From Candidatus Sericytochromatia bacterium (lineage in GTDB: Bacteria; Cyanobacteriota; Sericytochromatia; S15B-MN24; UBA4093): a DNA stretch of 24,338 bases. Positions 8,998-24,223 of this stretch are shown here, piece by piece. The stretch is from contig JAKFCT010000039.1 in assembly GCA_036676495.1 (NCBI GenBank), positions 1 through 24,338 on the forward strand. The letters are read 5' to 3'. The translations under genes were made by a program, and so were the position numbers. A model generated the notes under the pieces. It did no database searches, had not been told where the DNA came from, and worked only from the letters and a program-made list of their open reading frames with translations. Each line of letters starts with the position of its first letter. The first letter of the stretch is position 1.

Positions 8998-10329
<1,332 letters not shown>

Positions 10330-10332
10330 CCT

Positions 10333-12120
10333 GTGGACGGACGTAAGAAAACCAAAATCGTCGCAACGCTCGGCCCCTCGACCAGCACGGACGAGATGGT
10401 CGCCAAGCTGATCGAGGCCGGAGTCGACGTCTTCCGCCTCAACTTCTCGCACGGCTCTCATGAGACCCACCGCGAGAACATCGAGCGCGTGCGGCGCATC
10501 TCCAAGGACATGGGACGCCCGATCGCCCTCCTGCAGGACATCCAGGGGCCCAAGATCCGCGTCGGCGAGATCAACGGCGGCCAGGCCATCCTGGTCCCCG
10601 GCCAGACCTTCATGCTCACCACCACGCCGCTCGAAGGCAACGAGCAGATGGCCTCGGTCACCTACCCCCGCCTCACCGAGGACGTCCGCGAAGGCATGAA
10701 GATCCTCCTGGACGACGGCCTCCTCGAGCTCGTCGTCGTCGAGGTCAAGCCCGAGATGCTGGTGACCCGCGTGGTCGTCGGTGGAGCCCTCAAGCCCCGC
10801 AAGGGCGTGAACTTCCCCGGCTCCATGCTCAAGATCTCCATCATCACCGATAAGGACAAGGCCGACCTCAAGTTCGGAGCCGAGATGGGCATCGACCTCG
10901 TCGCCGCCTCCTTCGTCCAGCAAGCCTCGGACGTCCTGGAGGTCAAGGACTTCCTCGCCCAGCTCGGCAAGAAGACCCCGATCATCGCCAAGATCGAACG
11001 CCGCGAAGCCGTTCAGAACCTCCGCGAGATCATCCAGGTCGCCGACGGCGCCATGGTCGCCCGTGGCGACCTCGGCGTCGAGATCCCGGTCGAGGACGTG
11101 CCCATCGTCCAGAAGCAGATCATCCGGGGCTGCAACCTGGAAGGCAAGCCCGTCATCACCGCCACCCAGATGCTGGACTCGATGATCCGCGCTCCCCGGC
11201 CCACCCGGGCCGAGGCCTCGGACGTCGCCAATGCCATCCTGGACGGCACCGACGCGATCATGCTCTCCAACGAGACGGCCGCGGGCGCCTACCCCCTCGA
11301 ATCGGTCGAGACCATGGCGCGCATCGCCATGCAGGTCGAGCGCTCGATGATGCCCAAGGTCCGGCCCGAACTGGAAGAAGGCTACATCCGTCCCGTGCAG
11401 GACTCGGTCGCTCACGCGGCCACCCGCATGGTCCAGGAGCTGGGCGCCTCGGCCATCGTCACGGCCACCTACTCGGGCAGCTCCGCCCGCATGGTCGCCA
11501 AGTACCGTCCCGGCTGCGCCATCATCGCCGCCACCCCCTTCGAGGACGTCTGCCGCCAGATGAACCTCATCTGGGGGGTCTACCCGATCCGGATCACCCA
11601 GACCGAGACCATCGACGACCTCTTCCAGCAAGCCGTGGCCGAAGCCACCTCCGCCGGCCTGGTCGAGGACGGCGATCAGGTGATCATGGTCGCCGGCATC
11701 CCCATGGGCGTGCCCGGCACCACCAACATGGTCACCGTCGAGGTGGTCTCCAGCATCATCGCCCGGGGCATGGGCCTCGGCCAACGGCCCATCTGCGGCG
11801 TCGCCCGGGTGGTCTTCGACCCCACCCTCGCCTGCGAGGCCGTGCACGCCGGAGACATCCTGGTCACCCAGAACACGGACGCGTCCTGGAACCCGGCCAT
11901 CGAGAAGGCCTCCGCCATCGTGGTCCGCAGCGGCGGCCTCACCTCGCATGCGGCCATCGTGGGGCTCGAGCTCAACAAGCCGGTGATCCTCGGCGTCGAG
12001 GAGCTCGAGAAGATCCGCGACGGAGCGACCATCACGGTCGACCCCCTGCGCGGGCTGATCTTCAGCGGCGAGGCCAAGATCGGCTGTGAGCCGGGACCCA
12101 CCCCCTGGGATCGCTCCTAG
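10333..12120 (+). CDS. pyk: Pyruvate kinase with C-terminal PEP-utilising (phosphohistidine swivel) domain
   Basis: [54 protein letters not shown]; C-terminal [14 protein letters not shown] start. Confidence 0.98.
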
Positions 12121-12240: not shown

Positions 12241-12858
12241 CTAAGGGGCGCTCCCGCCGCGCCGGGACGCCAGGTCGCGCAGGGCCTCATGGTAGTCCTC
12301 CGGGCGATTGAGGTTCCGGAAGGAGGCAAGCTCGGGGTCGTAGCGGCGCACCACCCCGACGGGGATCTCCCGCACGCGGATCGCCGCGAGGAAGCGCTGC
12401 ATGCTCAGGTCGTCCGCGGCGCCCGGCGCGCGGAGCATGGGCAGGATCCGGCGGGAGTAGACGGCCAGCAAGGGCTCTCGGCCCCGGGCGCTGCACGGCA
12501 CGACGGCATCCGCGTCCAAGGTCTGCTCGGCCAGGAAGCGCAGCAAGTTCGGGTTCAAGAACGGCATGTCGCAGGCGGTCAGCAGGACCTGAGGCTCCTC
12601 GACGGCTTCCAACCCGCTCGCCAGGGCTTCCAGGGGGCCTCGGCCCGGATGGCGATCGGGGATTCGGGGGGCCTCCGGCAGCGGAAAATCCGCATGCCCG
12701 ACCACCAGGACGTTCGGGAAGATCTCGGAGAGCATGGCGTGGACGCGGACGGCCATCGGGACCCCTCCGAAGGGCAGTCGAGCCTTGTCCTGGCCCATTC
12801 GGCGGCTCTTTCCACCCGTGAGCAAGAGGGCCGCGCGGGTCTGAAGGGGGTCGGGCAT
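12241..12858 (-). CDS. mobA: Molybdenum cofactor guanylyltransferase
   Basis: LTGGKSRRMGQDKA, GPL, ACDMPF, EPLLAVY, FRNLNRPED; GGAGG RBS; divergent from the molybdoenzyme operon. Confidence 0.92.
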   Translation of the reverse strand: MPDPLQTRAALLLTGGKSRRMGQDKARLPFGGVPMAVRVHAMLSEIFPNVLVVGHADFPLPEAPRIPDRHPGRGPLEALASGLEAVEEPQVLLTACDMPFLNPNLLRFLAEQTLDADAVVPCSARGREPLLAVYSRRILPMLRAPGAADDLSMQRFLAAIRVREIPVGVVRRYDPELASFRNLNRPEDYHEALRDLASRRGGSAP

Positions 12859-12993
12859 GGGGCCTCCGGAGGTCTTGGGGACGCTTCCTTCTTATCCTAG
12901 CGGGACTTCAGAGGACGAGCGGAAAAGCACTTGAATTCCATGATGAATTTATGTTAAGCCACATGAGGGAAGCTGCCACGATCGGAGGGCGCC

Positions 12994-14118
12994 ATGAGAC
13001 CCGACACGGGCCCCGGCATGAGACCTGGCATGAGACCCGGCCGGAAGGTCGCTCCGGACGATCCGGCGGACCGCGCGGCGGCGAAGGCCCGCGTGCCGGC
13101 CGCCGCCCTGGCGCTCTTGTCGGCCGTCGTGGTGGTGCTGCTCGCCTACCTCGGCTCGCGGGGGTTCCGGGACTTCGACGTGGCGCTGATCGGGTACTTC
13201 GTGGGCCTGGTCTTCGCGACGGCGGCGATCGTCTACCGCTACAGCCTCTGGATCACGCGCCCGCCAACCTGGCGGTATTTCCGCGCCGGCTGGGCCAACT
13301 TCTTCTCCTGGAAGAACTTCACGCGCTACACCTTGCTCTTGCCGGTGGCGCTTTGGCACGACCTGATCGCCCAGACCTTCATCCGCAAGCGCAGCCTCAG
13401 GCGCTGGCTGATGCACCAGGCGATCTTCTGGGGAGTGATCCTGAGCTTGCTCGTCACCATTCCGCTGACCATGGGCTGGATCCGCTTCACGTTGATCCCG
13501 CCGGATACCTACGTGGCCTGGTTCTTCGGCCTGCCGATCATGCGCTTTCCCATCGAGGCGGGGACGGGGTTCGCCATCTTCCATGCCCTGGATTGGTCGG
13601 CGCTATTGCTGATCGTGGGGCTGGTCATCGCCTTCTGGGGGCGGCTCAACGACGTGGGCAGCCTCACGACGCAGCGCTTCAGCTTCGACCTGATGCCCCT
13701 GGTGCTGCTGGCGGCGATCGCCGTGAGTGGGCTCTTGCTCACGGCCTCGGTCTGGTGGTGGGAAGGGCGCTATTACTGGTTCATCTCGCTGGCGCACCAG
13801 GTCTTCGTGGTGGGGTGGCTGCTCTCGCTGCCCTTCGGGAAGTTCTTCCACATCGTCCAGCGGCCGGCCAGCATCGGCGTCAAGCTCTACCAGACGGTCA
13901 ACCAGGATCTCGAGCAAGGAACCGGCGTCTGCCGGGGCTGTGGGACGGCCTTGCCGTCTCAGCAGTTCGTCAGCGACCTCAAGGAGACCCTCGTGGATCT
14001 GCGCCAGAACTACGACCTCGGCCATGAGCTCGGCTGGCTCCAGGACTACTGTCCGACCTGCAAGCGGAAGCTTCGCGGCAAGGCCTACTACCAGCTTCTC
14101 GGAAAGAGGTTCCTCTGA
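12994..14118 (+). CDS. Multi-TM NarI/DsrM-like membrane protein (putative cytochrome b) with C-terminal CxxC...CxxC domain
   Basis: About 7 TM segments; His residues in MHQAIFWG, IFHALDW, LAHQVFV and LPFGKFFH (compare the NarI-family PFs(K/R)l.H motif); C-terminal CRGC...CPTC. Start is ambiguous (ATG 12994, 13018 or 13030). Confidence 0.7.
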   Translation: MRPDTGPGMRPGMRPGRKVAPDDPADRAAAKARVPAAALALLSAVVVVLLAYLGSRGFRDFDVALIGYFVGLVFATAAIVYRYSLWITRPPTWRYFRAGWANFFSWKNFTRYTLLLPVALWHDLIAQTFIRKRSLRRWLMHQAIFWGVILSLLVTIPLTMGWIRFTLIPPDTYVAWFFGLPIMRFPIEAGTGFAIFHALDWSALLLIVGLVIAFWGRLNDVGSLTTQRFSFDLMPLVLLAAIAVSGLLLTASVWWWEGRYYWFISLAHQVFVVGWLLSLPFGKFFHIVQRPASIGVKLYQTVNQDLEQGTGVCRGCGTALPSQQFVSDLKETLVDLRQNYDLGHELGWLQDYCPTCKRKLRGKAYYQLLGKRFL

Positions 14119-16418
14119 TGAGCGTCAACAAGGATTTCTTCCAGCCCGATCGGCAGTTCAACTACGATTTCCAGTCGGTCGGCCGGCCCGAGGTCGGCTG
14201 GCAAGAGGCCTCGCATCTTCCCGAGGCCCTGGTGCCGACCCATTGCTCCTTTTGCGGGGTTCAATGCGGGATGTACCTGCGGGTCAGCGACGGTCGCGTC
14301 ACCGGAGTGGAGCCCCGCGACTACCCGCATAACCAGGGCAAGCTCTGTCCGAAGGGAGTGGTCGCCTACCAGCAGGTCGATCATCCGGAAAGGCTGACCA
14401 CGCCCCTGATCCGGCGGGGGGGCAAATCCGGAAAGCTGCAGCCGGCGACCTGGGAGGAGGCGTACGCGGCGATCGCCAGCCGCTGGCAGGAAATCCAGGC
14501 CCGCCACGGCAAGGATGCGGTCGCCGTCTACTCGGGATCCTCCATGACCAACGAGAAATGCTACCTCATGGGGAAGTTCGCCCGGGTGGCCCTGCAGACC
14601 CGGCACATCGACTACAACGGGCGGCTCTGCATGTCCTCGGCGGCCTACGGGTACTCCAAGGCCTTCGGGCTGGATCGCTGCCCCTTGCCGATGACCGACG
14701 TCCCCTTGGCCAAGTGCATCGTCGTGGTGGGCTCGAACGTCGCGGAGTGCTTCCCGATCCTCATGCACTGGATCTGGCAGGCCCGCGACCGCGGCGCGCG
14801 GCTGATCGTCCTCGATCCTCGCGAGACGCCCATCGCGCGCACGGCGGACCTCTGGCTCCCGGTCAAGCCCGGCACGGACGTGGCCGTGCTCAACGCCATG
14901 CTGCGCCAGGTCATCCAGGACGGCCGGGTCGACGAGGCCTATATCCAAGCGCGAACCAACGGCTGGGAAGCGACCAAGGCCATGGTCGAATCCTTCACCC
15001 CCGAGGAGGCCGAGCGACTGAGCGGCGTTCCCGCCGAGCGGATCCTGGCGGCGGCCCGCCTCTACGGGGAGGCCGATCCATCGCTCATCATGCATGCGCG
15101 CGGCATCGAGCACAGCACCCACGGGGTCAATAACGTGCTGGCATGCATCAACCTGGCCCTCGCGCGCGGGCAGGTCGGCAAGCCCGGCGGGGGCTCCATG
15201 ATGATCACCGGCCAGGGCAACGGCCAGGGCGGGCGGGAGGTCGGCCAGAAGGCCAACCAATTGCCCGGCTACCGGCATATCACCTTGCCGGAGGATCGGG
15301 AGTACGTGGCCAAGGTCTGGGGGATTCCCGTCGATTCCTTGCCCTGGGAAGGGGCGGCGGCGACCGAGATGGTCCGCTTGATGGCAGAGGGCACGATCAA
15401 GTCCTGCCTCATCGCCTGCTCCAACCTCATGGTCTCGCTTCCCGACAACGCGGTCGTCCAGCGTGCCTTGCAGCAGCTCGATCCCCTGGTGGTGGTCGAC
15501 TTCTTCATGTCGGAGACCGCCGAACTGGCGGACATCGTCCTGCCGGGCTCGGTCTGGTGCGAGGACGAGGGGACCACGACCAACCTGGAAGGCCGGGTCG
15601 TCAAGATCAACCGGGCGGCGGATCCTCCCGGCATCGCCAAGCGGGACTGGGAGATCCTCTGCGACCTGGCCCGCCACCTGGGGCGGCCCCACGGCTTCAC
15701 GTTCCGCTCGGTCCGCGAGATCTGGGACGAGCTGCGCCTGGCGTCCAAGGGAGGGGTTTCCGACTATTACGGCATCACATGGGAGAAGATCGATGCGCAG
15801 GCCGGGGTCTTCTGGCCCTGTCCCTCGGAGGATCACCCGGGCACCCCGCGGCTCTTCACGGAGCGCTTCGCGCATCCGGATGGGCGGGCGAAGTTCTTCG
15901 CCATCCCGTTCGCCCCGGCCGCCGAAGAGCCCGGCGGAGACTATCCCTTCCGGCTCACGACAGGGCGGGTCGTCTACCAGTACCTGAGCGGCACCCAGAC
16001 CCGGCGACTCGGCTTCCTCAACAGCCAGGCTCCCGAGCCCTGGGTCGAAATTCACCCCCAGGCCGCGGATCCCCTCGGCATCCAAACCGACGACTTGGTG
16101 CGGGTGCGCACCCCGCGCGGCGCGATGGAGCTCAAGGCCCTGGTCACGCCGACCATTCGGCCCGATACCCTCTTCATCCCCTTTCACTACGGCCATGCGC
16201 ACGCCGTCAACCAGCTCACCAACCCCGCCGTCGAGCCGAACGTCAAGATCCCGGAGTACAAGGCGTGCGCAGCGGCCATCGAGCGGCTCGAGGCCCCACC
16301 CCGAGCGCTGGATCGCAGCCCCAAGCAGAACCTGACGGCTCAGCAGGCGCCTGAGATGTTTCCTTACGCCTCGGGAGCGGGCGAAGCGGGCGAGGCGACG
16401 GAAGGGAAGACCTACTAG
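14118..16418 (+). CDS. Mo-bisPGD oxidoreductase, NasA/NarB/NapA-type nitrate reductase catalytic subunit
   Basis: [4Fe-4S] motif CSFCGVQC...LCPKG; Mo-ligand region NGRLCMSSA; TGQGNGQGGRE; EGTTTNLEGR; LTTGR...QTRR; IPEYKACA. No Tat signal. TGATG coupling with the upstream gene. Confidence 0.88.
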   Translation: MSVNKDFFQPDRQFNYDFQSVGRPEVGWQEASHLPEALVPTHCSFCGVQCGMYLRVSDGRVTGVEPRDYPHNQGKLCPKGVVAYQQVDHPERLTTPLIRRGGKSGKLQPATWEEAYAAIASRWQEIQARHGKDAVAVYSGSSMTNEKCYLMGKFARVALQTRHIDYNGRLCMSSAAYGYSKAFGLDRCPLPMTDVPLAKCIVVVGSNVAECFPILMHWIWQARDRGARLIVLDPRETPIARTADLWLPVKPGTDVAVLNAMLRQVIQDGRVDEAYIQARTNGWEATKAMVESFTPEEAERLSGVPAERILAAARLYGEADPSLIMHARGIEHSTHGVNNVLACINLALARGQVGKPGGGSMMITGQGNGQGGREVGQKANQLPGYRHITLPEDREYVAKVWGIPVDSLPWEGAAATEMVRLMAEGTIKSCLIACSNLMVSLPDNAVVQRALQQLDPLVVVDFFMSETAELADIVLPGSVWCEDEGTTTNLEGRVVKINRAADPPGIAKRDWEILCDLARHLGRPHGFTFRSVREIWDELRLASKGGVSDYYGITWEKIDAQAGVFWPCPSEDHPGTPRLFTERFAHPDGRAKFFAIPFAPAAEEPGGDYPFRLTTGRVVYQYLSGTQTRRLGFLNSQAPEPWVEIHPQAADPLGIQTDDLVRVRTPRGAMELKALVTPTIRPDTLFIPFHYGHAHAVNQLTNPAVEPNVKIPEYKACAAAIERLEAPPRALDRSPKQNLTAQQAPEMFPYASGAGEAGEATEGKTY

Positions 16419-16460
16419 CTCGCTTTCTCGACGTCCCGAGGCCTCGGAGAGGAGGAGCGG

Positions 16461-17081
16461 ATGGCCATCGATACGCTGTTCATGGATCCGTCGCGCTGCA
16501 TCGGCTGCCGCGCCTGCGAGGCCGCCTGCCGGGAATGCGACTCCCACAAGGGCGAGAGCATGATCATGGTCGACTTCGTCGACCGCGCCCAGAACGTGGC
16601 CACTCAGCCGACGGTCTGCATGCACTGCGAGGATCCGGTGGCTCCTTGCGCGCAGGTCTGCCCGGTCATGGCCATCCTGATCACCGGCGAGGGGGTGGTC
16701 CAGCAGGCGGAGCCCTCCCGGTGCATCGCATGCCGAAACTGCGTCTACGCCTGTCCCTTCGGGGTCCCGAAGATGGACCTGGAGGCGCGCCTGATGAAGA
16801 AGTGCAACCTCTGCTACGACCGGACCGTCCAGGACCTCAAGCCCTGGTGCGCGCAGGCCTGTCCGACCCAGGCCATCTGGTACGGCACCTACGAGGAGTT
16901 CGTCAACCAGCGCAACGGGCGCGCCGTGAACCAGACCGTCTTCGGGACTCAAGCGGTCCGAACCCGGGTCTACCACGTGCTTCCCGAGGAGGTCGACACG
17001 CTCGACCTCGTGGCGCTGCTCGAAGGCGCCGCCAGCGAGCTCGGCCGCCCCTCGGCGGAAAAGGAGGCCTGGGTCCTATGA
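16461..17081 (+). CDS. 4x[4Fe-4S] electron-transfer subunit (DmsB/NrfC/FdnH family)
   Basis: CIGCRACEAAC, CMHCEDPVAPCAQVCP, CIACRNCVYACP, KCNLC...WCAQACP; strong GGAGGAG RBS. Confidence 0.92.
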   Translation: MAIDTLFMDPSRCIGCRACEAACRECDSHKGESMIMVDFVDRAQNVATQPTVCMHCEDPVAPCAQVCPVMAILITGEGVVQQAEPSRCIACRNCVYACPFGVPKMDLEARLMKKCNLCYDRTVQDLKPWCAQACPTQAIWYGTYEEFVNQRNGRAVNQTVFGTQAVRTRVYHVLPEEVDTLDLVALLEGAASELGRPSAEKEAWVL

Positions 17082-17641
17082 ACGAGCCGACGACGCCAGG
17101 TCTGTCCCCGCAGCCGGGCCCCTTCGGCCCCCGGGAGGCGGCTCCCGGACCGGATCAGCCGCCGTTCGAAAAATGGCGTACGACCTTCCCGTTCCACTGG
17201 GACGCCGACGAATTGGTTTCCCGCCGCGAGCTGCTTTACTTCACCGTCTTCGCCTCCGCCACCATGTTCAGCACGACCTTCCTGCTCGCGATCCTCGGCT
17301 GGCTGAGGCAGCCCGTACATGGCAGCATTCAGCCGGTCGTCAGGATCGGCGACGTCCCCGAAGGCGGGGCGCATTACTTCGATTACCCGGGCCCGGACCA
17401 GTTGGCCGTGCTCTTGCACCTTCCCGGCGGTCGCTTCGTCGCCTACAGCCTGCGCTGCACCCACCTCTCCTGCGCCGTCTACTTCAACGCGGAGCGCCAA
17501 GAGCTGATTTGCCCCTGCCATCACGGGCTCTTCGAACTCGCGTCGGGAGAGCCCGTGGCGGGTCCGCCGCGCAGGAGGCTGGAGCAGATAGCCTTGCGCC
17601 AGGAGGGCGACGTGCTCTACGCCGTCGCGATCGCCCCATGA
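17078..17641 (+). CDS. Rieske [2Fe-2S] protein with N-terminal twin-arginine-like motif and TM anchor
   Basis: CTHLSC and CPCHHG Rieske boxes; SRRELL followed by a hydrophobic helix; ATGA overlap with the ferredoxin stop. Confidence 0.9.
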   Translation: MNEPTTPGLSPQPGPFGPREAAPGPDQPPFEKWRTTFPFHWDADELVSRRELLYFTVFASATMFSTTFLLAILGWLRQPVHGSIQPVVRIGDVPEGGAHYFDYPGPDQLAVLLHLPGGRFVAYSLRCTHLSCAVYFNAERQELICPCHHGLFELASGEPVAGPPRRRLEQIALRQEGDVLYAVAIAP

Positions 17642-17940
17642 GGCGCCGTCCGTCGGGCTCCCCGCATGGGCCGCCCTTGCCCGGCCAGCAGGCCCTGGTC
17701 ACGGCCGGCATGGTCATGGGCTTCGTGCTGCTGGGCGCGCAACTCTGGCTGCTCACCGTGGCGCTGGATCTCTACCTGGCGGGACGCGGCAGCAACATCT
17801 GGCTCTTGGCGCTGGTTTCGGGGCTCATCACAGCCGGCGGCCTCGCGATCCTCTACCTCTTGCATCGCCGGCCCCGCGTGCAACGCCTGACCACCGATGA
17901 ATCCGGGCGAACCGTCCGCCGCTTCGAGCACGACGTCTGA
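17638..17940 (+). CDS. Small two-TM membrane protein (QLWLL motif; DUF6755-like from recall)
   Basis: ATGA overlap with the Rieske stop; two hydrophobic helices around AQLWLLTVALDLYLAG. Confidence 0.7.
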   Translation: MRRRPSGSPHGPPLPGQQALVTAGMVMGFVLLGAQLWLLTVALDLYLAGRGSNIWLLALVSGLITAGGLAILYLLHRRPRVQRLTTDESGRTVRRFEHDV

Positions 17941-17949
17941 GCGCGAACG

Positions 17950-19155
17950 TCACGAGGGCTCGTCGCGCGAGCCCTCGGGAGGCTCCGCGCTCTGGAAGAC
18001 GGGCTGGGGCTCCGCGACCGTGAGCGCCAGGTAGAGCGCGAGCAGGCCGCATGTGAGCAGGAAGAGGGAGAGCGCGAGGAAGCCGAAGGCGAAGCTGCCG
18101 GTGATGTCCAGGAGCACGCCGAGGACCAGCGGCGGGAAGAACCCACCCAGGCCCCCGAAGGCGCCCACCAGCCCCGTCACGGTCCCCGTCTCCGTGGGGT
18201 AGTACTCGGGAACGAGCTTGAAGACGGCCCCGTTCCCGAGCCCCAGCAGCAAGGCCAGACTCAAGGCTCCGACGGTGAAGGTCTCGAAGCGCTCGGGAAT
18301 GAGCAGCAAGGCGGAGATGACGCCCAGCAGGAAGACGCCCACCAGGATTTGCGCCCCCCCGAAGCGATCGGCGAGCCAGCCCCCCACGGGCCTAGCCAGG
18401 GTGGCCACCAGGACGAAGCCGGCCGTGCGAAGGCCCGCATCGGCCAGCGTGAGGTCGTAGCGGGTGGTGAGCAAGGTCGGTAGGTAGACGGACATGGCCA
18501 CGAAGCCGCCGAAGGTCCCGAAGTAGAAGAGGCTGAAGAGCCAGGCCTTTCGCGACCGCCCGAGCACGCCCACCATCTCCCCGAGGGATTTCTGCATGCC
18601 GGGACCGGCATCACGGGCCGTCGCCCAGAAGAGCAGCCCCCAGAGCAGGCAGATGCCGCCGAAGATCCAGAAAACGGGCTTCCAGGACCCCAGCGCGACG
18701 GCGAGCAGCGGAGCGAAGAAGACGGCGAAGCTCTGCCCGATGTTTCCCGCCCCGAAGACGCCCAGGGCCGTCCCCTGCTTGGAGGGGGGGAACCACTTGC
18801 TGGTGAAGGCCACCCCCACCGCGAAGCTGGATCCGGCGACCCCCAGCAGGAAGCCCCAGATCAGGATGGCCGCATAGCTGTTGCTCAGGGCGATGCCCGC
18901 CGCCGGCACGGCGGCGACGATCAAGAGCGCGCTCATCACCGCGCGGCCACCGAAGCGATCGGCCAGGATCCCCATGACGATGCGCCCCATCGAGCCGAGC
19001 AGGACCGGAATCGAGACCATCAAGGCCACCTGGGTCTGGCTGAGGCCCAGCTCGTCCTTGAGAACCGGCGCCAAGGCTCCCAGCAAGCCCCAGAGCGCGA
19101 AGCTGATGGCGAAGGCTGCCGTGGCGAGCAAGAGCTGCACGTTGGGCTGCTTCAC
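17950..19155 (-). CDS. narK: NarK/NasA-family nitrate/nitrite MFS transporter
   Basis: 12-TM MFS with nitrate signature motifs GAGNIG and GLGNGAVFKLVP, both conserved intramembrane Arg (GRIVMG, LARPVGG), and GGLGGFFPP. GTG start with AAAGGAG RBS. Confidence 0.92.
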   Translation of the reverse strand: MKQPNVQLLLATAAFAISFALWGLLGALAPVLKDELGLSQTQVALMVSIPVLLGSMGRIVMGILADRFGGRAVMSALLIVAAVPAAGIALSNSYAAILIWGFLLGVAGSSFAVGVAFTSKWFPPSKQGTALGVFGAGNIGQSFAVFFAPLLAVALGSWKPVFWIFGGICLLWGLLFWATARDAGPGMQKSLGEMVGVLGRSRKAWLFSLFYFGTFGGFVAMSVYLPTLLTTRYDLTLADAGLRTAGFVLVATLARPVGGWLADRFGGAQILVGVFLLGVISALLLIPERFETFTVGALSLALLLGLGNGAVFKLVPEYYPTETGTVTGLVGAFGGLGGFFPPLVLGVLLDITGSFAFGFLALSLFLLTCGLLALYLALTVAEPQPVFQSAEPPEGSRDEPS

Positions 19156-19307: not shown

Positions 19308-20579
19308 CTAGGCCAACACAGGCTCGGCCTGCGCCTTCGGCAGCGCGATCTGGTGCTCCCGGCTGAACTGGTAGTCCCAGAAGACATGCTCGGCGCTCGG
19401 CAGGTGGTAACGGCCCGGAGCCTCGAGGACGGTCGTCTCCTTGAGGCGGTAGACGTAATGGCCACAGGTGTAGACCCGGAAGGCGTTCATGTGCGTGCAG
19501 AGGCAGACCCGGTCCGTCACCGGCATCTTGCGGCCCGTCACGGGATCGTCGGGAGTCTCGTGGTACGCGTCCAGGTACTTGCAGTGCCCTTCCCCGTCCA
19601 GGATGAAGCCCAGCGTCTCGCAATTCGGCTTGATGTTCGAGCCGAGGGCGGGAGAGGACTTCAGCATGCGCATGGGGTAGCCGGTCGGAGACTGCGTGTT
19701 CACCTCGACGTCGTCGAGGCCGGCGCCCAGGTAGACCTGCTTCACGTGATCCGGCAAGCCGCATTCCTGGGTGATCGTGAAGCGGGTGGCGACCTGGACG
19801 GCCGCGGCCCCGCGCGCGAGGTAGTTGGCGGCGTCCGTCCCGGTGAAGATCCCGCCCGCGGGAATGACCGGAATGGAGAGGCCCTCCTTGGCAAGCATGT
19901 CGAGAACTTCCTGGACGATGGTCGGGAGATCGGCCTTCTTCCAGTCGTCAGCGCCAAAGCCAAGGTGGCCGCCGGCCAGGGGGCCCTCCACGACGACGTA
20001 ATCGGGCATGCGCTCGACGCGCTTGGCGCGGCGCAAGAAGAGGGCGAGCGCCCGCGCGGAGGAGACGATGATCCCGAGCTGCGCGTCCCGGAAGCGGGGA
20101 TGATCGGCGATCAGCTCGAAGGATCCGAGGTGCAAGCCCGCGCTCAGGGTGATCCCGTCGATCCCGGCGTCCAGGGCGGCCTCCAGGCGGACCTTGAGGG
20201 TCTCGCGGGGGGCGTTCATGGTCAGCTTCTCCATGACGTTGACGTAGACGGCCCCGGGTCCGCGCTTGGCGTCCATGGTCTTCGAGACGTGGAGCATGGT
20301 GGCCTCGCGCAACTCCCCGAGGTCGAACGGGACGTCACGCCGGGTAGGCTCGGGCGCCGTGCCCCGGTTACGGGCGCTGCGGTTCTTGAGGTAGTTGGTC
20401 TTGTAGAGGCGATCGGTCACCGCCATGGTCATGGCATCGGAGATATGGCCGATCCCGCCCAGCCGAGCCGCTTCGAGCGCCAGCCGGGAGTTCGAGATGT
20501 CCACTCCCATGCCGCCAATCATCAGGGGTACGTATTGTTTGCCACCAAGCTGGAGGCGGTAATCGTCGACGCAAGTCAT
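19308..20579 (-). CDS. Nitronate monooxygenase/FabK/FabX-family FMN enzyme with Cys-rich C-terminus
   Basis: IGGMGVDIS, VEGPLAGGHLGF, PVIPAGGI, GAAAVQVATRF, SPTGYP; ATG 20579 follows a GGAG RBS. Confidence 0.85.
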   Translation of the reverse strand: MTCVDDYRLQLGGKQYVPLMIGGMGVDISNSRLALEAARLGGIGHISDAMTMAVTDRLYKTNYLKNRSARNRGTAPEPTRRDVPFDLGELREATMLHVSKTMDAKRGPGAVYVNVMEKLTMNAPRETLKVRLEAALDAGIDGITLSAGLHLGSFELIADHPRFRDAQLGIIVSSARALALFLRRAKRVERMPDYVVVEGPLAGGHLGFGADDWKKADLPTIVQEVLDMLAKEGLSIPVIPAGGIFTGTDAANYLARGAAAVQVATRFTITQECGLPDHVKQVYLGAGLDDVEVNTQSPTGYPMRMLKSSPALGSNIKPNCETLGFILDGEGHCKYLDAYHETPDDPVTGRKMPVTDRVCLCTHMNAFRVYTCGHYVYRLKETTVLEAPGRYHLPSAEHVFWDYQFSREHQIALPKAQAEPVLA

Positions 20580-20808
20580 CTGCTTCTCCGTTTCGTTCGG
20601 GCACTCCCTCCATCGTACGGGTCGCAGGTCATAACCGCCTCCGCGTTCTGTCATGGAACGGTCACGGTTTGGTAGTCTTTTCGCCGCCCACCCAGCCTGC
20701 CGCGCCCCTCCCTCGAAGCAGCCGTCAGCATGCGGGTTTTCGCCTTTCCGTGATCCGGTCGCGCCGCGGCCGCGGCTCCATGGACGGAGGGGCCGGAGTC
20801 GCAGGGGG

Positions 20809-22277: not shown

Positions 22278-24014
22278 TCACCCCCCTACCTTGTGTAGGT
22301 AGGCTTTGGGCTTCAGCGCTTCGGACGGCGACGAGGCGATCTTCTCGCTGAGCGCGACGACGGCCTGCGCCAAGGTGGGTTGAACCGCCCAGTCGGGGAT
22401 CGTCTCCGGGATGATGTTCAGCTTGCGCAGCACGCCTTCCGGCTCCGAAGGCAAGCCCGAAAGCATGATCGTCACCCCCTTCTCCCCCATCTTCTTGACG
22501 AACTCCTGGAGGGTGAAAGCACCGGTCTGATCGATCAAGGGCACGCGCGGCATCCGGAAGATGACGGCCTTGACGTCGGTGAGGTCCTCCTCCAGCGAGA
22601 CGAAGAAGGCTTCGCTGGTCCCGAAGAAGACCGGCCCTTCGGCGTGGACGACCCGAATGCTCTCGGCGAGGGCTCGCGCCTCCGGGCTTTCGGTCTCGAC
22701 CATGGACGCCAGCGTCCCGCTCGAGGTGATCTCCCGATTGCTGAGGTTCTTCAGGAAGAGTAGGCAAGCCACCAGGAAGCCCATTTGCACGGCCGTGATC
22801 AGGTCGACGAAGACCGTCAGCACGAGGACGACCATCAGCACGATCCGGTCGGCTCTGGGGGACTGCTTCATGAGCCGCAAGCCCTGGTAATCGATAATCG
22901 AGATGCCGACCGTCACGAGGATGCCCGCCAACACCGCCAGGGGAATCTGCGAGGCGTACCGGGACAGTCCCAGGAGGACGGCCAGCAGAAGGGCACTGTG
23001 AATGATACCCGAGAGGGCCGTCTTGCCCCCGCTCTTGATGTTGAGCAAGGTTCGCATGGTGGCGCCGGCTCCAGGCAAGCCACCGAAAGCTCCCGAGACC
23101 ATGTTCCCCATGCCCTGGCCGACCAATTCCTTGTTGCTGTGATGCTTCGTGCCCGTGACGTTATCCACGACGACCGAACCGAGCAAACTATCCAGAGATC
23201 CCAGGATCGCCAGGGTCAGCGCCGCCAGCAGAATTTGCGAGAGGACCTCGGCCGACGGCAAGACGAGGTGAAGCTGCGGCAAGCCTGAGGGCAATTCCCC
23301 GATGGTCGGCACCTGGAGCCCGAGGAGCTGCGAGACGGCCGTCATGACGATCAGCGCCACCAAGGTACTTGGGATGGCCTTCGAGATCCGGGGGAAAAGA
23401 TAGATCACGGCGATGGTGCTGAGTCCCAGCATCAAGGCCATGGCATCGACATGGGACCAGGAGTCGAAGAGGCCCGCAAGGGCGTTTAGCGGGCGAGAGA
23501 CGGACGGCTGCCCGAGAAGCGGCTGAATCTGCAGCAGCAGGATGATGACGCCGATGCCGGACATGAAGCCGGAAACAACGGTTCTCGGGACATAGCGAAT
23601 ATAGTGGCCAAGGCCGAGCAAGCCAAAGACGATCTGGATCATCCCACCGAGCAAGACAGCCATGAAGAGGTGCGCAGGCTGGGCGCCTGTCGCCAGAAAC
23701 GCCGTGGCAACGACGGTCATGGGACCGGTCGGACCGCTGATTTGGGGCGCGGTCCCGCCGAAAAGCGCCGCCATGAAGCCGAGCAAGATGGCGCTGTAAA
23801 GGCCCGCCTTCGCCCCTTCTTCCATCCCGGTGGCGACGCCGAAGGCCAGGGCCAGGGGAATCGCCACGACCCCGGTCGTGAGCCCCCCGAAGATATCGCC
23901 TCGCAAATTGGCCGTGTGGAGGGGATTGGGCCGGAAGAGTTCGAGGAACCGATACGTCTCCAGCTGTCGCCGCAGGCGCTGTGCCCAGGTGGAGAAATTC
24001 TGCAAGGCTAGCAT
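22278..24014 (-). CDS. SulP/SLC26 anion transporter with STAS domain, BicA-like
   Basis: NLRGDIFGGLT...PLALAFGVA, ISGPTGPMTVV, ELVGQGMGN, GAGATMRT, STAS motif GPVFFG...IDQTG; ATG 24014 with AAAGGA upstream. Confidence 0.93.
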   Translation of the reverse strand: MLALQNFSTWAQRLRRQLETYRFLELFRPNPLHTANLRGDIFGGLTTGVVAIPLALAFGVATGMEEGAKAGLYSAILLGFMAALFGGTAPQISGPTGPMTVVATAFLATGAQPAHLFMAVLLGGMIQIVFGLLGLGHYIRYVPRTVVSGFMSGIGVIILLLQIQPLLGQPSVSRPLNALAGLFDSWSHVDAMALMLGLSTIAVIYLFPRISKAIPSTLVALIVMTAVSQLLGLQVPTIGELPSGLPQLHLVLPSAEVLSQILLAALTLAILGSLDSLLGSVVVDNVTGTKHHSNKELVGQGMGNMVSGAFGGLPGAGATMRTLLNIKSGGKTALSGIIHSALLLAVLLGLSRYASQIPLAVLAGILVTVGISIIDYQGLRLMKQSPRADRIVLMVVLVLTVFVDLITAVQMGFLVACLLFLKNLSNREITSSGTLASMVETESPEARALAESIRVVHAEGPVFFGTSEAFFVSLEEDLTDVKAVIFRMPRVPLIDQTGAFTLQEFVKKMGEKGVTIMLSGLPSEPEGVLRKLNIIPETIPDWAVQPTLAQAVVALSEKIASSPSEALKPKAYLHKVGG

Positions 24015-24143
24015 GATTGAACACGTCCTTTTCGCATGGACGCGCACGTGATCACGGCGCGAGGGCGCGCGGCACTTCCGTAGGAAGGACGCTGGCAATC
24101 GGTTCAGCGCCCGACATCGGGGCTGAGAGCGGATCTGGTATCC

Positions 24144-24172
24144 ATCGTGCAAGGAACCCGGGGTCCCGTCAA
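24144..24172 (-). promoter_or_regulatory. Putative sigma70 promoter for the SulP gene
   Basis: Minus strand TTGACG (24172-24167), 17-nt spacer, CACGAT (24149-24144). Confidence 0.4.
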
Positions 24173-24223
24173 CCCAAGCTCGGCTGGTCAACGCTGGCGG
24201 TCAGCGGGCCTGCCGGCGGAGAC

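Follow-up and report, generated by a model that had tools for sequence, protein, structure and literature searches.

Gene content of the locus

We have analyzed a window of 24,338 nucleotides from a Candidatus Sericytochromatia bacterium (GCA_036676495.1, contig JAKFCT010000039.1), which contains five genes on the + strand between positions 12994 and 17940. These are g1 (12994-14118, 374 aa), g2 (14118-16418, 766 aa), g3 (16461-17081, 206 aa), g4 (17078-17641, 187 aa) and g5 (17638-17940, 100 aa). Genes g1 and g2 share one base (cTGATGa), g3/g4 and g4/g5 have ATGA overlaps and a gap of 42 nt separates g2 from g3, so that three of the four junctions overlap, as had been stated in the initial annotation. 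Upstream and divergent is a mobA gene (12241-12858, - strand) for a molybdenum cofactor guanylyltransferase, which makes the bis-MGD cofactor that g2 needs. It matched NTP_transf_3, while MobA models scored 87-122 bits, all below their cut-offs. A mobA gene is also next to the cluster in a genome of the same genus. Downstream and convergent is a NarK-family nitrate/nitrite MFS transporter (17950-19155, - strand), which matched MFS_1 and scored 235.7 bits with the NarK model TIGR00886, below the cut-off of 311.7. No nitrite reductase was found in the window. In the mobA-g1 intergenic region there is an AT-rich box (TTGAATTCC...ATGTTAAG, 12931-12958, + strand), the core of which is conserved upstream of g1 in two genomes of the same genus and that is a candidate promoter or operator, although a scan with the sigma-70 consensus found 0 sites in 12800-18100.

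The subunits

The product of g1 (12994-14118) is a protein with six TM helices that has no Pfam family and gave only weak hits to QmoC and TcuB membrane domains. Its start codon is uncertain, because the first ~30 residues are not conserved. Four His (H141, H197, H268 and H286, assigned to two haems b) and four Cys (C313, C316, C353 and C356) are invariant in 32 sequences. The Cys form a conserved cytoplasmic C-terminal Cys4 knuckle that had not been mentioned in the initial annotation. The AF2 model (pLDDT 87.9) had its best fold matches with EtfD (Z 11.0, rmsd 5.5, 232 aligned) and NarI (Z 10.7, rmsd 4.3, 173 of 224 aligned), and hhalign placed H268/H286 on NarI H187/H205, with the PFGKFFH motif aligned to NarI PFSRLIH205. 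The description of g1 as NarI-like is thus borne out by fold and motif. However, Z scores of about 11 lie in the range that helical bundles can reach by chance, the hhalign probability to NarI was only 5%, Foldseek E-values were above 0.07 and two of the four His lie on different helices than in NarI.

The g2 gene (14118-16418) codes for a Cys-ligated Mo-bisPGD catalytic subunit with Molybdop_Fe4S4, Molybdopterin and Molydop_binding domains and a [4Fe-4S] FS0 motif. It carries the motifs GRLCMSSA and GQGNGQGGRE, has no RR pair before the first Cys motif and no C-terminal Cys cluster, and 0 of 75 homologues have a Tat-like motif. The initial annotation had considered GQGNGQGGRE to be unusual, but a canonical nirB-linked NasC-type enzyme has it too. 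The residue after the ligand Cys is Met in all 14 cluster members aligned, as in NapA/Nas, while in the four formate dehydrogenases compared the motif is Cys/Sec-His. In the tree, the 14 cluster sequences form one clade (SH-aLRT 97) that is sister (99) to a canonical NasC-type enzyme located beside NirB, and is apart from formate dehydrogenases and from NasA/NarB/NapA. It must be noted that the tree was a quick search with few references and without the B. subtilis NasC. Among NCBIfam models g2 scored 824 bits for NasC, 646 for Fdh-alpha, 292 for NapA and 66 for NarG. The first is below the cut-off (1100) and the second close to it (666). By BLAST, g2 is as near to plasmid FdhF genes (34-35% identity) as to proteobacterial Nas (33-34%).

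The g3 gene (16461-17081) codes for a four-[4Fe-4S] ferredoxin subunit (Fer4_11, DmsB/FdnH/HybA-like) without signal peptide, with hits to HybA, FDH-beta and DmsB and 16 Cys in four groups that were conserved in 31 sequences. The g4 gene (17078-17641) codes for a membrane-anchored Rieske [2Fe-2S] protein with a conserved N-terminal motif (EFPxxWDxDE), a twin-arginine signal anchor and the bc-type cluster boxes CTHLSC and CPCH, including the disulfide cysteines. It matched the Rieske family and gave bc1 QcrA, AioB and b6f hits. Residues R49, R50, C127, H129, C132, C145, C147 and H148 are invariant in 25 of 25 sequences, and the RR pair was seen in 57 of 59 loci. The last gene, g5 (17638-17940), codes for a small DUF6755-like protein with two TM helices and the motif QLWLLT..L..L.G. 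Its DUF6755 score (24.7 bits) is below the cut-off of 27, but the Deinococcus orthologue is named a DUF6755 family protein and, by our inspection, a similar ORF follows g4 in 57 of 59 loci.

Conservation of the cluster and predicted complex

The order g1-g2-g3-g4 was found in 59 of the 60 loci that have at least 4.6 kb after the start of g1, coming from at least seven phyla, and is not due to chance. One locus (L006 in our set) has g1-g2 without g3-g5. NarK is linked to the cluster in 41 of 80 loci, either adjacent or fused to g1, and in 30 of them it forms one ORF with g1. Independent fused proteins are P0122, P0152 and P0170 of our protein set. Relatives in a cultured Deinococcus are annotated only generically, and full-text searches of the literature found no description of this cluster, so that the architecture seems not to have been described.

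We have also predicted the complex of the accessory proteins. The prediction scored ipSAE 0.86 (runs 0.86, 0.87 and 0.84) against a best control of 0.35, with a partner pLDDT of 73-74 and runs that agree in at least 75% of contacts, a mark reached by 58 of 80 solved complexes and 2 of 110 mismatched pairs, although our own alignments and four chains were used, unlike in the calibration. In the model the Rieske cluster loops lie on g1 164-196 and 252-265, at the periplasmic face, g4 residues 36-46 lie on g3 60-78 in the cytoplasm, and g5 packs on the g4 TM helix.

A putative quinol:nitrate oxidoreductase

Our analysis supports the inference made in the initial annotation, a quinol-linked, membrane-bound nitrate (or related oxyanion) reductase of hybrid architecture, every testable element of which held up in silico. 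In the absence of any assay, transcript or structure, the explanation that we favor, with a probability of roughly 0.6, is that the operon encodes a five-subunit, membrane-bound and cytoplasm-facing quinol:nitrate oxidoreductase, a functional analogue of NarGHI assembled from NasC-type and other parts. Sidedness, electron path, quinol as donor, nitrate as substrate and a respiratory rather than assimilatory role are all inferred. Quinol would be oxidised at the periplasmic side of g1 and the electrons would cross the membrane through two haems, the distal one on H197/H268 and the proximal one on H141/H286, to enter the four [4Fe-4S] clusters of g3 and reach the FS0 cluster and the Mo-bisPGD of g2, where nitrate would be reduced to nitrite. 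A NarK-type transporter would bring nitrate in and take nitrite out. Quinol protons released outside and protons consumed inside would make this a proton-motive redox loop. The cytoplasmic location of the g1 N-terminus is indicated by the NarK-g1 fusions, provided that the usual MFS topology applies. The Rieske protein, Tat-inserted and with its head on the opposite membrane face from g2/g3, next to the distal haem, could be the first electron acceptor at a Qo-like site, an exit or entry to a periplasmic partner, or structural. NarGHI needs no Rieske centre, and the model leaves two conserved subunits without a necessary role. Bifurcation or a Q-cycle-like mechanism, as suggested in the initial annotation, remains a possibility only.

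We have examined the genome (92% complete) to which the window belongs and found no NarG and no NIR_SIR domain, but it does have NrfH, above its cut-off, next to a Cytochrom_C552/NrfA gene. In this organism nitrite would then go to periplasmic NrfAH, giving nitrate ammonification. Pyrinomonas carries a separate canonical NasC/NasB-like/NirB locus as well as this cluster. Hemerythrin/ScdA genes adjoin the cluster in 3 of the 4 flanks scanned, and a Crp/Fnr regulator in 1.

Alternative explanations

It is possible, although we consider it less likely, that the same complex serves nitrate assimilation, as a quinol-fed Nas that spares NADH or ferredoxin and passes nitrite to a cytoplasmic sirohaem nitrite reductase. 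Besides the sister position of NasC, 5 of the 5 other carrier genomes tested have NIR_SIR-domain proteins, and in Streptomyces filamentosus a NIR_SIR-domain ORF of 989 aa lies about 5 kb upstream of the cluster, so that an assimilatory role there is plausible. Furthermore, 4 of those 5 genomes lack NarG and most carriers named in the record titles are aerobic soil heterotrophs. The NarGHI of M. tuberculosis shows both assimilatory and respiratory activity (PMC7816997), and a membrane enzyme can therefore serve assimilation. However, the genome studied here has NrfAH and no NIR_SIR domain at 92% completeness, the canonical locus of Pyrinomonas (NasC/NasB-like/NirB/CobA) is complete, no nirA or nirBD gene was found in the four flanks scanned, and NIR_SIR hits can be sulfite reductases.

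It appears improbable that the Mo enzyme acts on another substrate, for example formate oxidation, or chlorate, selenate, arsenate or an N/S-oxide, with the NarK-like transporter carrying something other than nitrate. In favor of this, g2 is below the cut-off of every NCBIfam model and close to that of Fdh-alpha, its best plasmid matches after its own family are annotated fdhF, and the NarK score is also below its cut-off. On the other hand, the residue after the ligand Cys is His in all 4 formate dehydrogenases aligned and AioA lacks the Cys altogether, the cluster clade is sister to a NirB-linked NasC and separate from the FDH clade, and the genome has the NrfAH nitrite sink but no other candidate nitrate reductase.

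Equally doubtful is a periplasmic catalytic module, Nap-like or Aio-like, in which g2 and g3 would be co-exported on the Tat signal of the Rieske protein, as AioA is with AioB. This would fit the twin-arginine motif of g4 and its absence from g2 and g3, the proposal that AioA, which pairs with a Tat Rieske subunit, derives from the Nas lineage (Wells et al., 2020; PMC7331816) and the match of g4 to the arsenite oxidase small-subunit model (39.9 bits, below the cut-off of 95.65). Against it, in the predicted complex g3 is touched only by the g4 peptide that precedes the RR motif and the TM helix while the Rieske cluster loops touch g1 at the other end of that helix, NarK is fused or adjacent in 41 of 80 loci, which fits cytoplasmic nitrate reduction, g1 carries a transmembrane haem pair and the Cys4 domain on the cytoplasmic side, and g1-g2 fused ORFs exist (P0236 and P0206), although these could be frameshift artefacts.

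Comparison with known systems

The overall logic is that of the respiratory nitrate reductase NarGHI of the E. coli type with NarK, i.e., a NarI-fold dihaem cytochrome b, a four-cluster Fe-S subunit and a cytoplasmic Mo-bisPGD nitrate reductase partnered with a NarK transporter, and the PFxK/RxxH haem-ligand motif is shared. However, the catalytic subunit here has 766 aa, is Cys-ligated and of NasC lineage, and scored 66 bits with the NarG model against a cut-off of 1084, while the 206 aa Fe-S subunit is DmsB/FdnH-like and scored 24.5 bits with the NarH model against 524. In addition, g1 has six TM helices, a Cys4 tail and a different placing of two haem ligands, there are two extra conserved subunits (Rieske and DUF6755) and no narJ is found in the operon.

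The nearest lineage of the catalytic subunit is that of the NasC/NasB-type assimilatory nitrate reductases (B. subtilis type and the canonical Pyrinomonas locus, L110), with which it shares the motifs IDYNGRxCM and GQGNGQGGRE, similar NasC-model scores (824 here against 865 for the NirB-linked Pyrinomonas enzyme) and a cytoplasmic location with no Tat signal. Canonical NasC takes electrons from a soluble NADH-dependent flavoprotein and sits beside nirB, while here the partners are a membrane cytochrome b, a four-cluster ferredoxin, a Tat Rieske protein and a small membrane protein. Wells et al. (2020; PMC7331816) state that no member of the Nas/Aio/Nap/Fdh clade is associated with a four-cluster subunit or a membrane anchor.

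Like in the bc1 and b6f complexes, a Tat-inserted Rieske protein with CTHLxC and CPCH boxes, including the disulfide cysteines, is predicted to dock its cluster tip on the P-side face of a dihaem cytochrome b, next to the distal haem. Here, however, the cytochrome has a predicted NarI fold and matches no Pfam cytochrome b family, there is no cytochrome c1 or f and no Qi-site evidence, and the haem chain would end in a cytoplasmic reductase. In the archaeal pNar (haloarchaeal and Methanoperedens NarGH) the nitrate reductase operon apparently also encodes a Rieske protein and a cytochrome b (PMC2483277; PMC4683180), but there the catalytic subunit is probably NarG-type, Tat-exported and outward-facing and the cytochrome bc-type, while here the former is NasC-type without Tat signal and the latter NarI-type.

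Arsenite oxidase AioAB likewise pairs a Mo-bisPGD subunit from the Nas-related part of the family, without its own signal peptide, with a Tat-bearing Rieske subunit. However, AioA lacks the Cys ligand, g2 scored 170 bits with the AioA model against a cut-off of 359, Aio has no four-cluster subunit and no cytochrome b, and in our model the Rieske head binds g1 and not the Mo module. Finally, the EtfD/HdrE/DsrM/QmoC membrane modules, among which M. smegmatis EtfD was the best fold match of g1, are NarI-like haem b anchors that pass electrons between quinone and a cytoplasmic Fe-S partner. In the present case there is no CCG/HdrD-type domain, the partner is a molybdoenzyme and g1 carries a Cys4 knuckle instead.

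Gene organization of the cluster

Five tightly packed genes, which we call g1 to g5, are found on the + strand: g1 at 12994-14118 (374 aa), g2 at 14118-16418 (766 aa), g3 at 16461-17081 (206 aa), g4 at 17078-17641 (187 aa) and g5 at 17638-17940 (100 aa). The genes g1 and g2 share one base (TGATG), g3/g4 and g4/g5 overlap as ATGA, and g2 and g3 are 42 nt apart. A MobA-like gene is located divergently upstream (12241-12858, -) and a NarK-family MFS gene convergently downstream (17950-19155, -). The initial annotation, which had described a five-gene operon with overlaps at three of its four junctions and flanked by mobA and narK, was correct in all these points. Directly upstream of narK, on the same strand, lies a gene of the nitronate monooxygenase (NMO) family (19308-20654, -; PF03060, 104 bits), and since enzymes of this kind are expected to release nitrite from nitroalkanes, a link to nitrite handling is conceivable. 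The other neighbors, a SulP/STAS anion transporter downstream (22278-24191, -) and an enolase plus a pyruvate kinase with a PEP-utilising domain upstream (9040-12120, +), are ordinary housekeeping genes. A scan for promoters and terminators gave 0 promoter-like sites and 1 terminator-like site, inside g2, fewer than in the shuffles, but such a scan is uninformative in this 68% G+C DNA.

The product of g2 has the three domains of a Mo-bisPGD enzyme. Its best NCBIfam model is NasC (NF047855, 824 bits against a cut-off of 1100), followed by Fdh-alpha (646 against 666), haloarchaeal NasA (416), NapA and NarG. The gene g3 codes for a Fer4_11 protein with four Cys groups, most like HybA, FDH-beta and DmsB, and g4 for a Rieske protein whose best partial matches are actinobacterial QcrA, AioB and b6f PetC. 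The product of g5 is a two-TM protein that scores just under the cut-off of DUF6755 (PF20540, 24.7 against 27 bits).

The g1 product has no Pfam family and gives only weak hits to the membrane domains of QmoC and TcuB. In 32 homologues of 39-72% identity, four His (141, 197, 268, 286) and four Cys (313, 316, 353, 356) are invariant. The latter are part of a conserved C-terminal domain that the initial annotation did not mention. The first ~30 codons (12994-13080) hold three ATGAGACC repeats, giving MRPDTGPGMRPGMRPG, and are not conserved in homologues, many of which start at about M-x-RRE-L/V/M-PA, so that the true start may be one of the later ATGs. An AF2 model (pLDDT 87.9) shows six long TM helices, a three-stranded sheet in the loop 163-186 and a C-terminal Cys4 knuckle. 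A sequence search of the PDB with the g1 profile gave only one chance-level row (E 1.7), and Foldseek gave no match at E <= 0.001, listing mostly GPCRs, with EtfD and NarI at probabilities of 0.98 and 0.97 but E > 0.1. Structural alignment with VIA-align against 48,161 PDB representatives was more informative, the best rows being M. smegmatis EtfD (Z 11.0, rmsd 5.5, 232 aligned), E. coli NarI (1q16_C, Z 10.7, rmsd 4.3, 173 of 224 aligned, 18% identity) and CybB (Z 9.2), while FdnI scored Z 7.0. These Z values are within the range that helical bundles can reach by chance. However, hhalign against E. coli NarI lays FISLAH268 on FIFRLH187 and LPFGKFFH286 on FPFSRLIH205, positions that should correspond to the two helix-V haem ligands of NarI, although the probability is only 5% (E 0.0074). 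We read g1 as a putative dihaem cytochrome b of the NarI/HdrE/EtfD superfamily with a different placing of the other two ligands.

Conservation and distribution

At least 567 stretches across species genomes encode a g1 relative, of which the best 80 were kept. The record titles name Chloroflexota (including the cultured Thermogemmatispora aurantia and Dictyobacter kobayashii), Acidobacteriota (Pyrinomonas methylaliphatogenes), Actinomycetota (Streptomyces filamentosus, Iamia), Gemmatimonadota, Armatimonadota, Dormibacterota and Verrucomicrobiota. Of the 60 loci with at least 4.6 kb after the start of g1, 59 have g1-g2-g3-g4 colinear on one strand. The exception (L006, 8137-10440 and downstream), a MAG contig labelled Dehalococcoidia, has g1 and g2 (76% identical) but no g3-g5, being followed by a membrane-protein ORF on the other strand and small unrelated ORFs, and may be a truncated cluster or a chimeric contig. 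By our reading, a g5-like ORF (motif QLWLLT..L..L.G) follows g4 in 57 of 59 loci. In one of the loci (L070) an apparent g3-g4 fusion was discarded, as a stop lies between the two genes. An exhaustive profile search of 1.84 billion cluster representatives found 1487 g1 relatives at E <= 0.001, 976 at <= 1e-10 and 323 at <= 1e-30. On a Deinococcus psychrotolerans plasmid the cluster is annotated as 'MFS transporter' (this is g1), 'molybdopterin oxidoreductase family protein', '4Fe-4S dicluster domain-containing protein', 'Rieske 2Fe-2S domain-containing protein', 'DUF6755 family protein' and 'MFS transporter', i.e., with generic names, as the initial annotation had suggested for similar clusters.

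The cluster is patchy even among relatives. In a sample of 151 genomes of the same phylum, 55 match the NasC model, none above the cut-off. Of the 12 loci that we retrieved only 4 carry the cluster (the genome studied here, two of its genus and one of its family), and the other 8 are 34-40% identical enzymes without g1/g3/g4. The family-level relative (locus L101) carries a version only 53% identical in g2, which groups with the Deinococcus psychrotolerans plasmid copy rather than with the copy studied here. This suggests lateral transfer, in line with the plasmid location in Deinococcus. Most genomes of the phylum that match the NasC model carry a stand-alone enzyme (loci L102-L109) 34-36% identical to g2, with GQPNAMGGRE, that groups with NasA/NarB-type reductases. 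The phylum therefore holds two quite different Nas-like enzymes.

Lineage of the catalytic subunit and link to nitrate

We compared g2 with sequences from annotated records and family-labelled genomes. All 14 cluster members aligned have Cys-Met at the ligand position (GRLCM[SVT]SA), and so do C. necator NapA (RHCMASA) and the Nas enzymes (RLCM[AS]S), while the four formate dehydrogenases have Cys/Sec-His and the two AioA sequences have no Cys. The motif GQGNGQGGRE, considered unusual in the initial annotation, is shared by a canonical enzyme of Pyrinomonas that belongs to an assimilatory locus (L110, G153:C1:13000-27000) made up of a sigma-54 regulator, this NasC-type enzyme, a NasB-like flavoprotein, NirB (1200 bits) and CobA. 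NasA, NarB and Nap have GQPNAMGGRE or similar. Actually, the Pyrinomonas enzyme also stays below the NCBIfam NasC cut-off, at 865 bits, so that this cut-off misses bona fide NasC outside the group it was trained on. In a quick ML tree of 29 rows the cluster clade (SH-aLRT 97) is sister to that NasC (99), apart from a FDH clade (95) and a NasA/NarB/NapA clade (95), with AioA outside. The search was a quick one with few references, and the branches of NapA and FdnG are long. Thus, g2 does not group with formate dehydrogenases; such a grouping is what the initial annotation had named as contrary to its reading.

A NarK-like gene lies on the same strand and in the same operon in 41 of the 80 loci, upstream in 34 and downstream in 7. 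In 30 loci it forms one uninterrupted ORF with g1, of about 740-830 aa, seen mainly in loci labelled Acidobacteriota. The 742-aa ORF of one of these loci (L044, 5840-8065) and three independent database proteins (P0122, P0152 and P0170) have MFS_1 followed by the g1 domain. These fusions probably explain the 'MFS transporter' label on unfused g1 proteins. Two more proteins (P0236 and P0206) run from g1 into the Fe4S4 domain of g2, but with a one-base gene overlap these could be frameshift artefacts.

Membrane sidedness and predicted assembly

As MFS proteins are expected to end in the cytoplasm, the fusion puts the N-terminus of g1 inside. With six TM helices, the basic loop 88-134 and the Cys4 tail would then be inside and the loops 55-62, 160-196 and 256-260 outside, which places H141/H286 near the cytoplasmic face and H197/H268 near the periplasmic face, as in NarI. 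None of 75 g2 homologues has a Tat-like motif before the FS0 cysteines. On the contrary, g4 carries an invariant RR in a [ST]RRxxL/F context before its single TM helix (R49 and R50), found in 25 of 25 aligned sequences and in 57 of 59 loci inspected; of the other two, L026 shows it in the alignment and the ORF of L055 is truncated. The cluster boxes of g4 are CTHLSC and CPCH, and the residues C127, H129, C132, C145, C147 and H148 are also invariant in 25 of 25 sequences, including the two extra cysteines that would form the disulfide in bc1/b6f Rieske proteins. Besides, a conserved motif (W-R/K-x-E-F-P-Y-x-W-D-x-D-E) precedes the RR pair, which is unusual for the n-region of a signal peptide.

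We folded together g1 (residues 25-374), g3, g5 and g4 (the scored partner) using our own alignments. The ipSAE score was 0.86 (runs 0.86, 0.87, 0.84) against a best control of 0.35, with a partner pLDDT of 73-74 and agreement between runs in at least 75% of contacts. That mark was reached by 58 of 80 solved complexes and by 2 of 110 mismatched pairs, although the calibration used pairs of single chains and other alignments, so these counts hold only roughly. In the best run, the g4 TM helix (48-77) packs on g1 TM2 (62-89) and TM6 (273-282), and the Rieske cluster loops (125-138, 146-150, 161-166) touch the g1 loops 164-173, 187, 192, 196 and 252-265, next to H197/H268. Residues 36-46 of g4, part of the conserved N-terminal motif, touch g3 60-78, and g5 (10-75) packs along the g4 helix. 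The model supports binding but does not show it. It agrees with the independent Tat, fusion and charge arguments that the Rieske head is outside and g3 is inside.

Physiological context and possible mechanism

The genome (4.14 Mb, 106 contigs, 92% complete) has only one other, distant Mo-bisPGD paralogue (30% identity), no NarG and no NIR_SIR domain, and a NirK-like gene below the cut-off (198 against 296 bits). However, it has an nrfH-nrfA pair. NrfH scores 150 bits against a cut-off of 134, while the neighboring gene scores 428 bits on Pfam Cytochrom_C552 but 282 and 212 bits on the two NCBIfam NrfA models, below their cut-offs. This complex is therefore the only candidate nitrate reductase, feeding an ammonifying nitrite reductase. 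Among five other carrier genomes, NIR_SIR proteins occur in 5 of 5 and NarG in 1 of 5. The flanks of the four loci scanned hold hemerythrin/ScdA-type genes (L039, L044, L007) and a Crp/Fnr regulator (L044), but no nitrite reductase.

Most likely (probability about 0.6) we are dealing with a NarGHI-like redox loop, in which quinol would be oxidised outside, electrons would pass through two haems to g3 and g2, nitrate would be reduced inside, and NarK would exchange nitrate for nitrite. The Rieske centre and g5 are conserved but are not needed by that scheme. The predicted position of the Rieske centre, beside the distal haem at the P-side, recreates the geometry of a Qo site. It could be the first electron acceptor in quinol oxidation, a branch to or from a periplasmic partner, or a structural clamp that ties g3 to the membrane through the N-terminal peptide of g4.

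The branched option, which we consider unlikely, can be taken further. The complex could be a bc-like, obligately bifurcating quinol oxidase built on a NarI-fold cytochrome, in which one electron of each quinol would cross the membrane to the cytoplasmic NasC-type nitrate reductase from a P-side Qo-like site flanked by the Rieske cluster and the distal haem. The other would leave through the Rieske centre to a periplasmic acceptor, such as a cytochrome c feeding NrfA, NirK or an oxidase. Nitrate would take the place of the Qi site, cytoplasmic nitrate reduction would be mechanically coupled to a second, periplasmic reduction, and the complex would represent a fourth architectural class of prokaryotic nitrate reductase, beside Nar, Nap and Nas. 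This remains a speculative reading.

Among the alternatives, the one that survives best, although we consider it unlikely, is that the same machine is used for assimilation. Pyrinomonas has the complete canonical assimilatory locus in addition to the cluster, which argues for a distinct role. That the enzyme acts on another substrate is doubtful given the Cys-Met motif and the position of g2 in the tree, even if its score is close to the Fdh-alpha cut-off. Least likely is a periplasmic enzyme exported by hitch-hiking on g4, as the fusion, charge and model arguments suggest that g3 is inside.

Comparison with known nitrate reductases and related complexes

This is a real, strongly conserved and widespread five-subunit system. 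Judging from sequence, predicted structure and context, from which all the functional statements made here are inferred, it is best described as a membrane-bound nitrate reductase that combines NasC-lineage catalysis, a predicted NarI-like anchor and a bc-type Rieske subunit. We have found no description of this cluster in the literature searched, which left out most subscription journals and supplements, so that a prior description cannot be excluded. Prokaryotic nitrate reductases are taught as three classes, Nar, Nap and Nas, and a NasC-lineage enzyme plugged into the quinol pool would be a fourth wiring scheme. Wells et al. 2020 (PMC7331816) state that no member of the Nas/Aio/Nap/cytoplasmic-Fdh clade is associated with the canonical four-cluster or membrane-anchor subunits, which this cluster contradicts, and that AioA derives from the Nas lineage. 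Wells et al. 2023 (PMC10100899) treat NasC/NasA as purely assimilatory. Metagenomic pipelines that go by the catalytic subunit alone would probably file g2 as an assimilatory nasA/narB gene. Eichorst et al. 2018 (PMC5900883) report Acidobacteria that reduce nitrate to nitrite while carrying only 'nasA' genes, and this complex is a candidate explanation, provided that those strains carry it. [quoted passage not shown]

Compared with the respiratory nitrate reductase NarGHI, g2 scores only 66.3 bits over two short stretches on the NarG model (TIGR01580, cut-off 1084) and its ligand is Cys, within GRLCMSSA, while g3 scores 24.5 bits on the NarH model (TIGR01660, cut-off 524). With the NasC-type assimilatory enzymes g2 shares the Cys-ligand and GQGNGQGGRE motifs and the phylogenetic grouping, but no soluble NADH/ferredoxin-dependent partner and no nirBD or nirA was found in the window or in the four flanks scanned, and the partners are membrane and Fe-S proteins. 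In the case of the periplasmic Nap, the NapA models give 275-292 bits (cut-offs 904-930), the Tat-like motif is missing in the 75 homologues and there is no cytochrome c gene in the operon. The formate dehydrogenases FdhF/FdsA/FdnG differ at the active site and in the tree, and the arsenite oxidase Aio models are not reached by either g2 (169.9 bits on TIGR02693, cut-off 359), which has the Cys, or g4 (39.9 bits on TIGR02694, cut-off 95.65). Finally, the Tat-anchored Rieske protein with CTHxxC / CPCH boxes and the disulfide Cys is shared with the Rieske/cytochrome b complexes, but g1 does not match a cytochrome b of the bc1/b6f fold, its best fold matches being EtfD and NarI, and the operon has no c-type cytochrome gene. 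A Rieske centre docked on a NarI-type cytochrome would be a new kind of quinol site, and bears on how Rieske/cytochrome b complexes and Aio-type enzymes arose.
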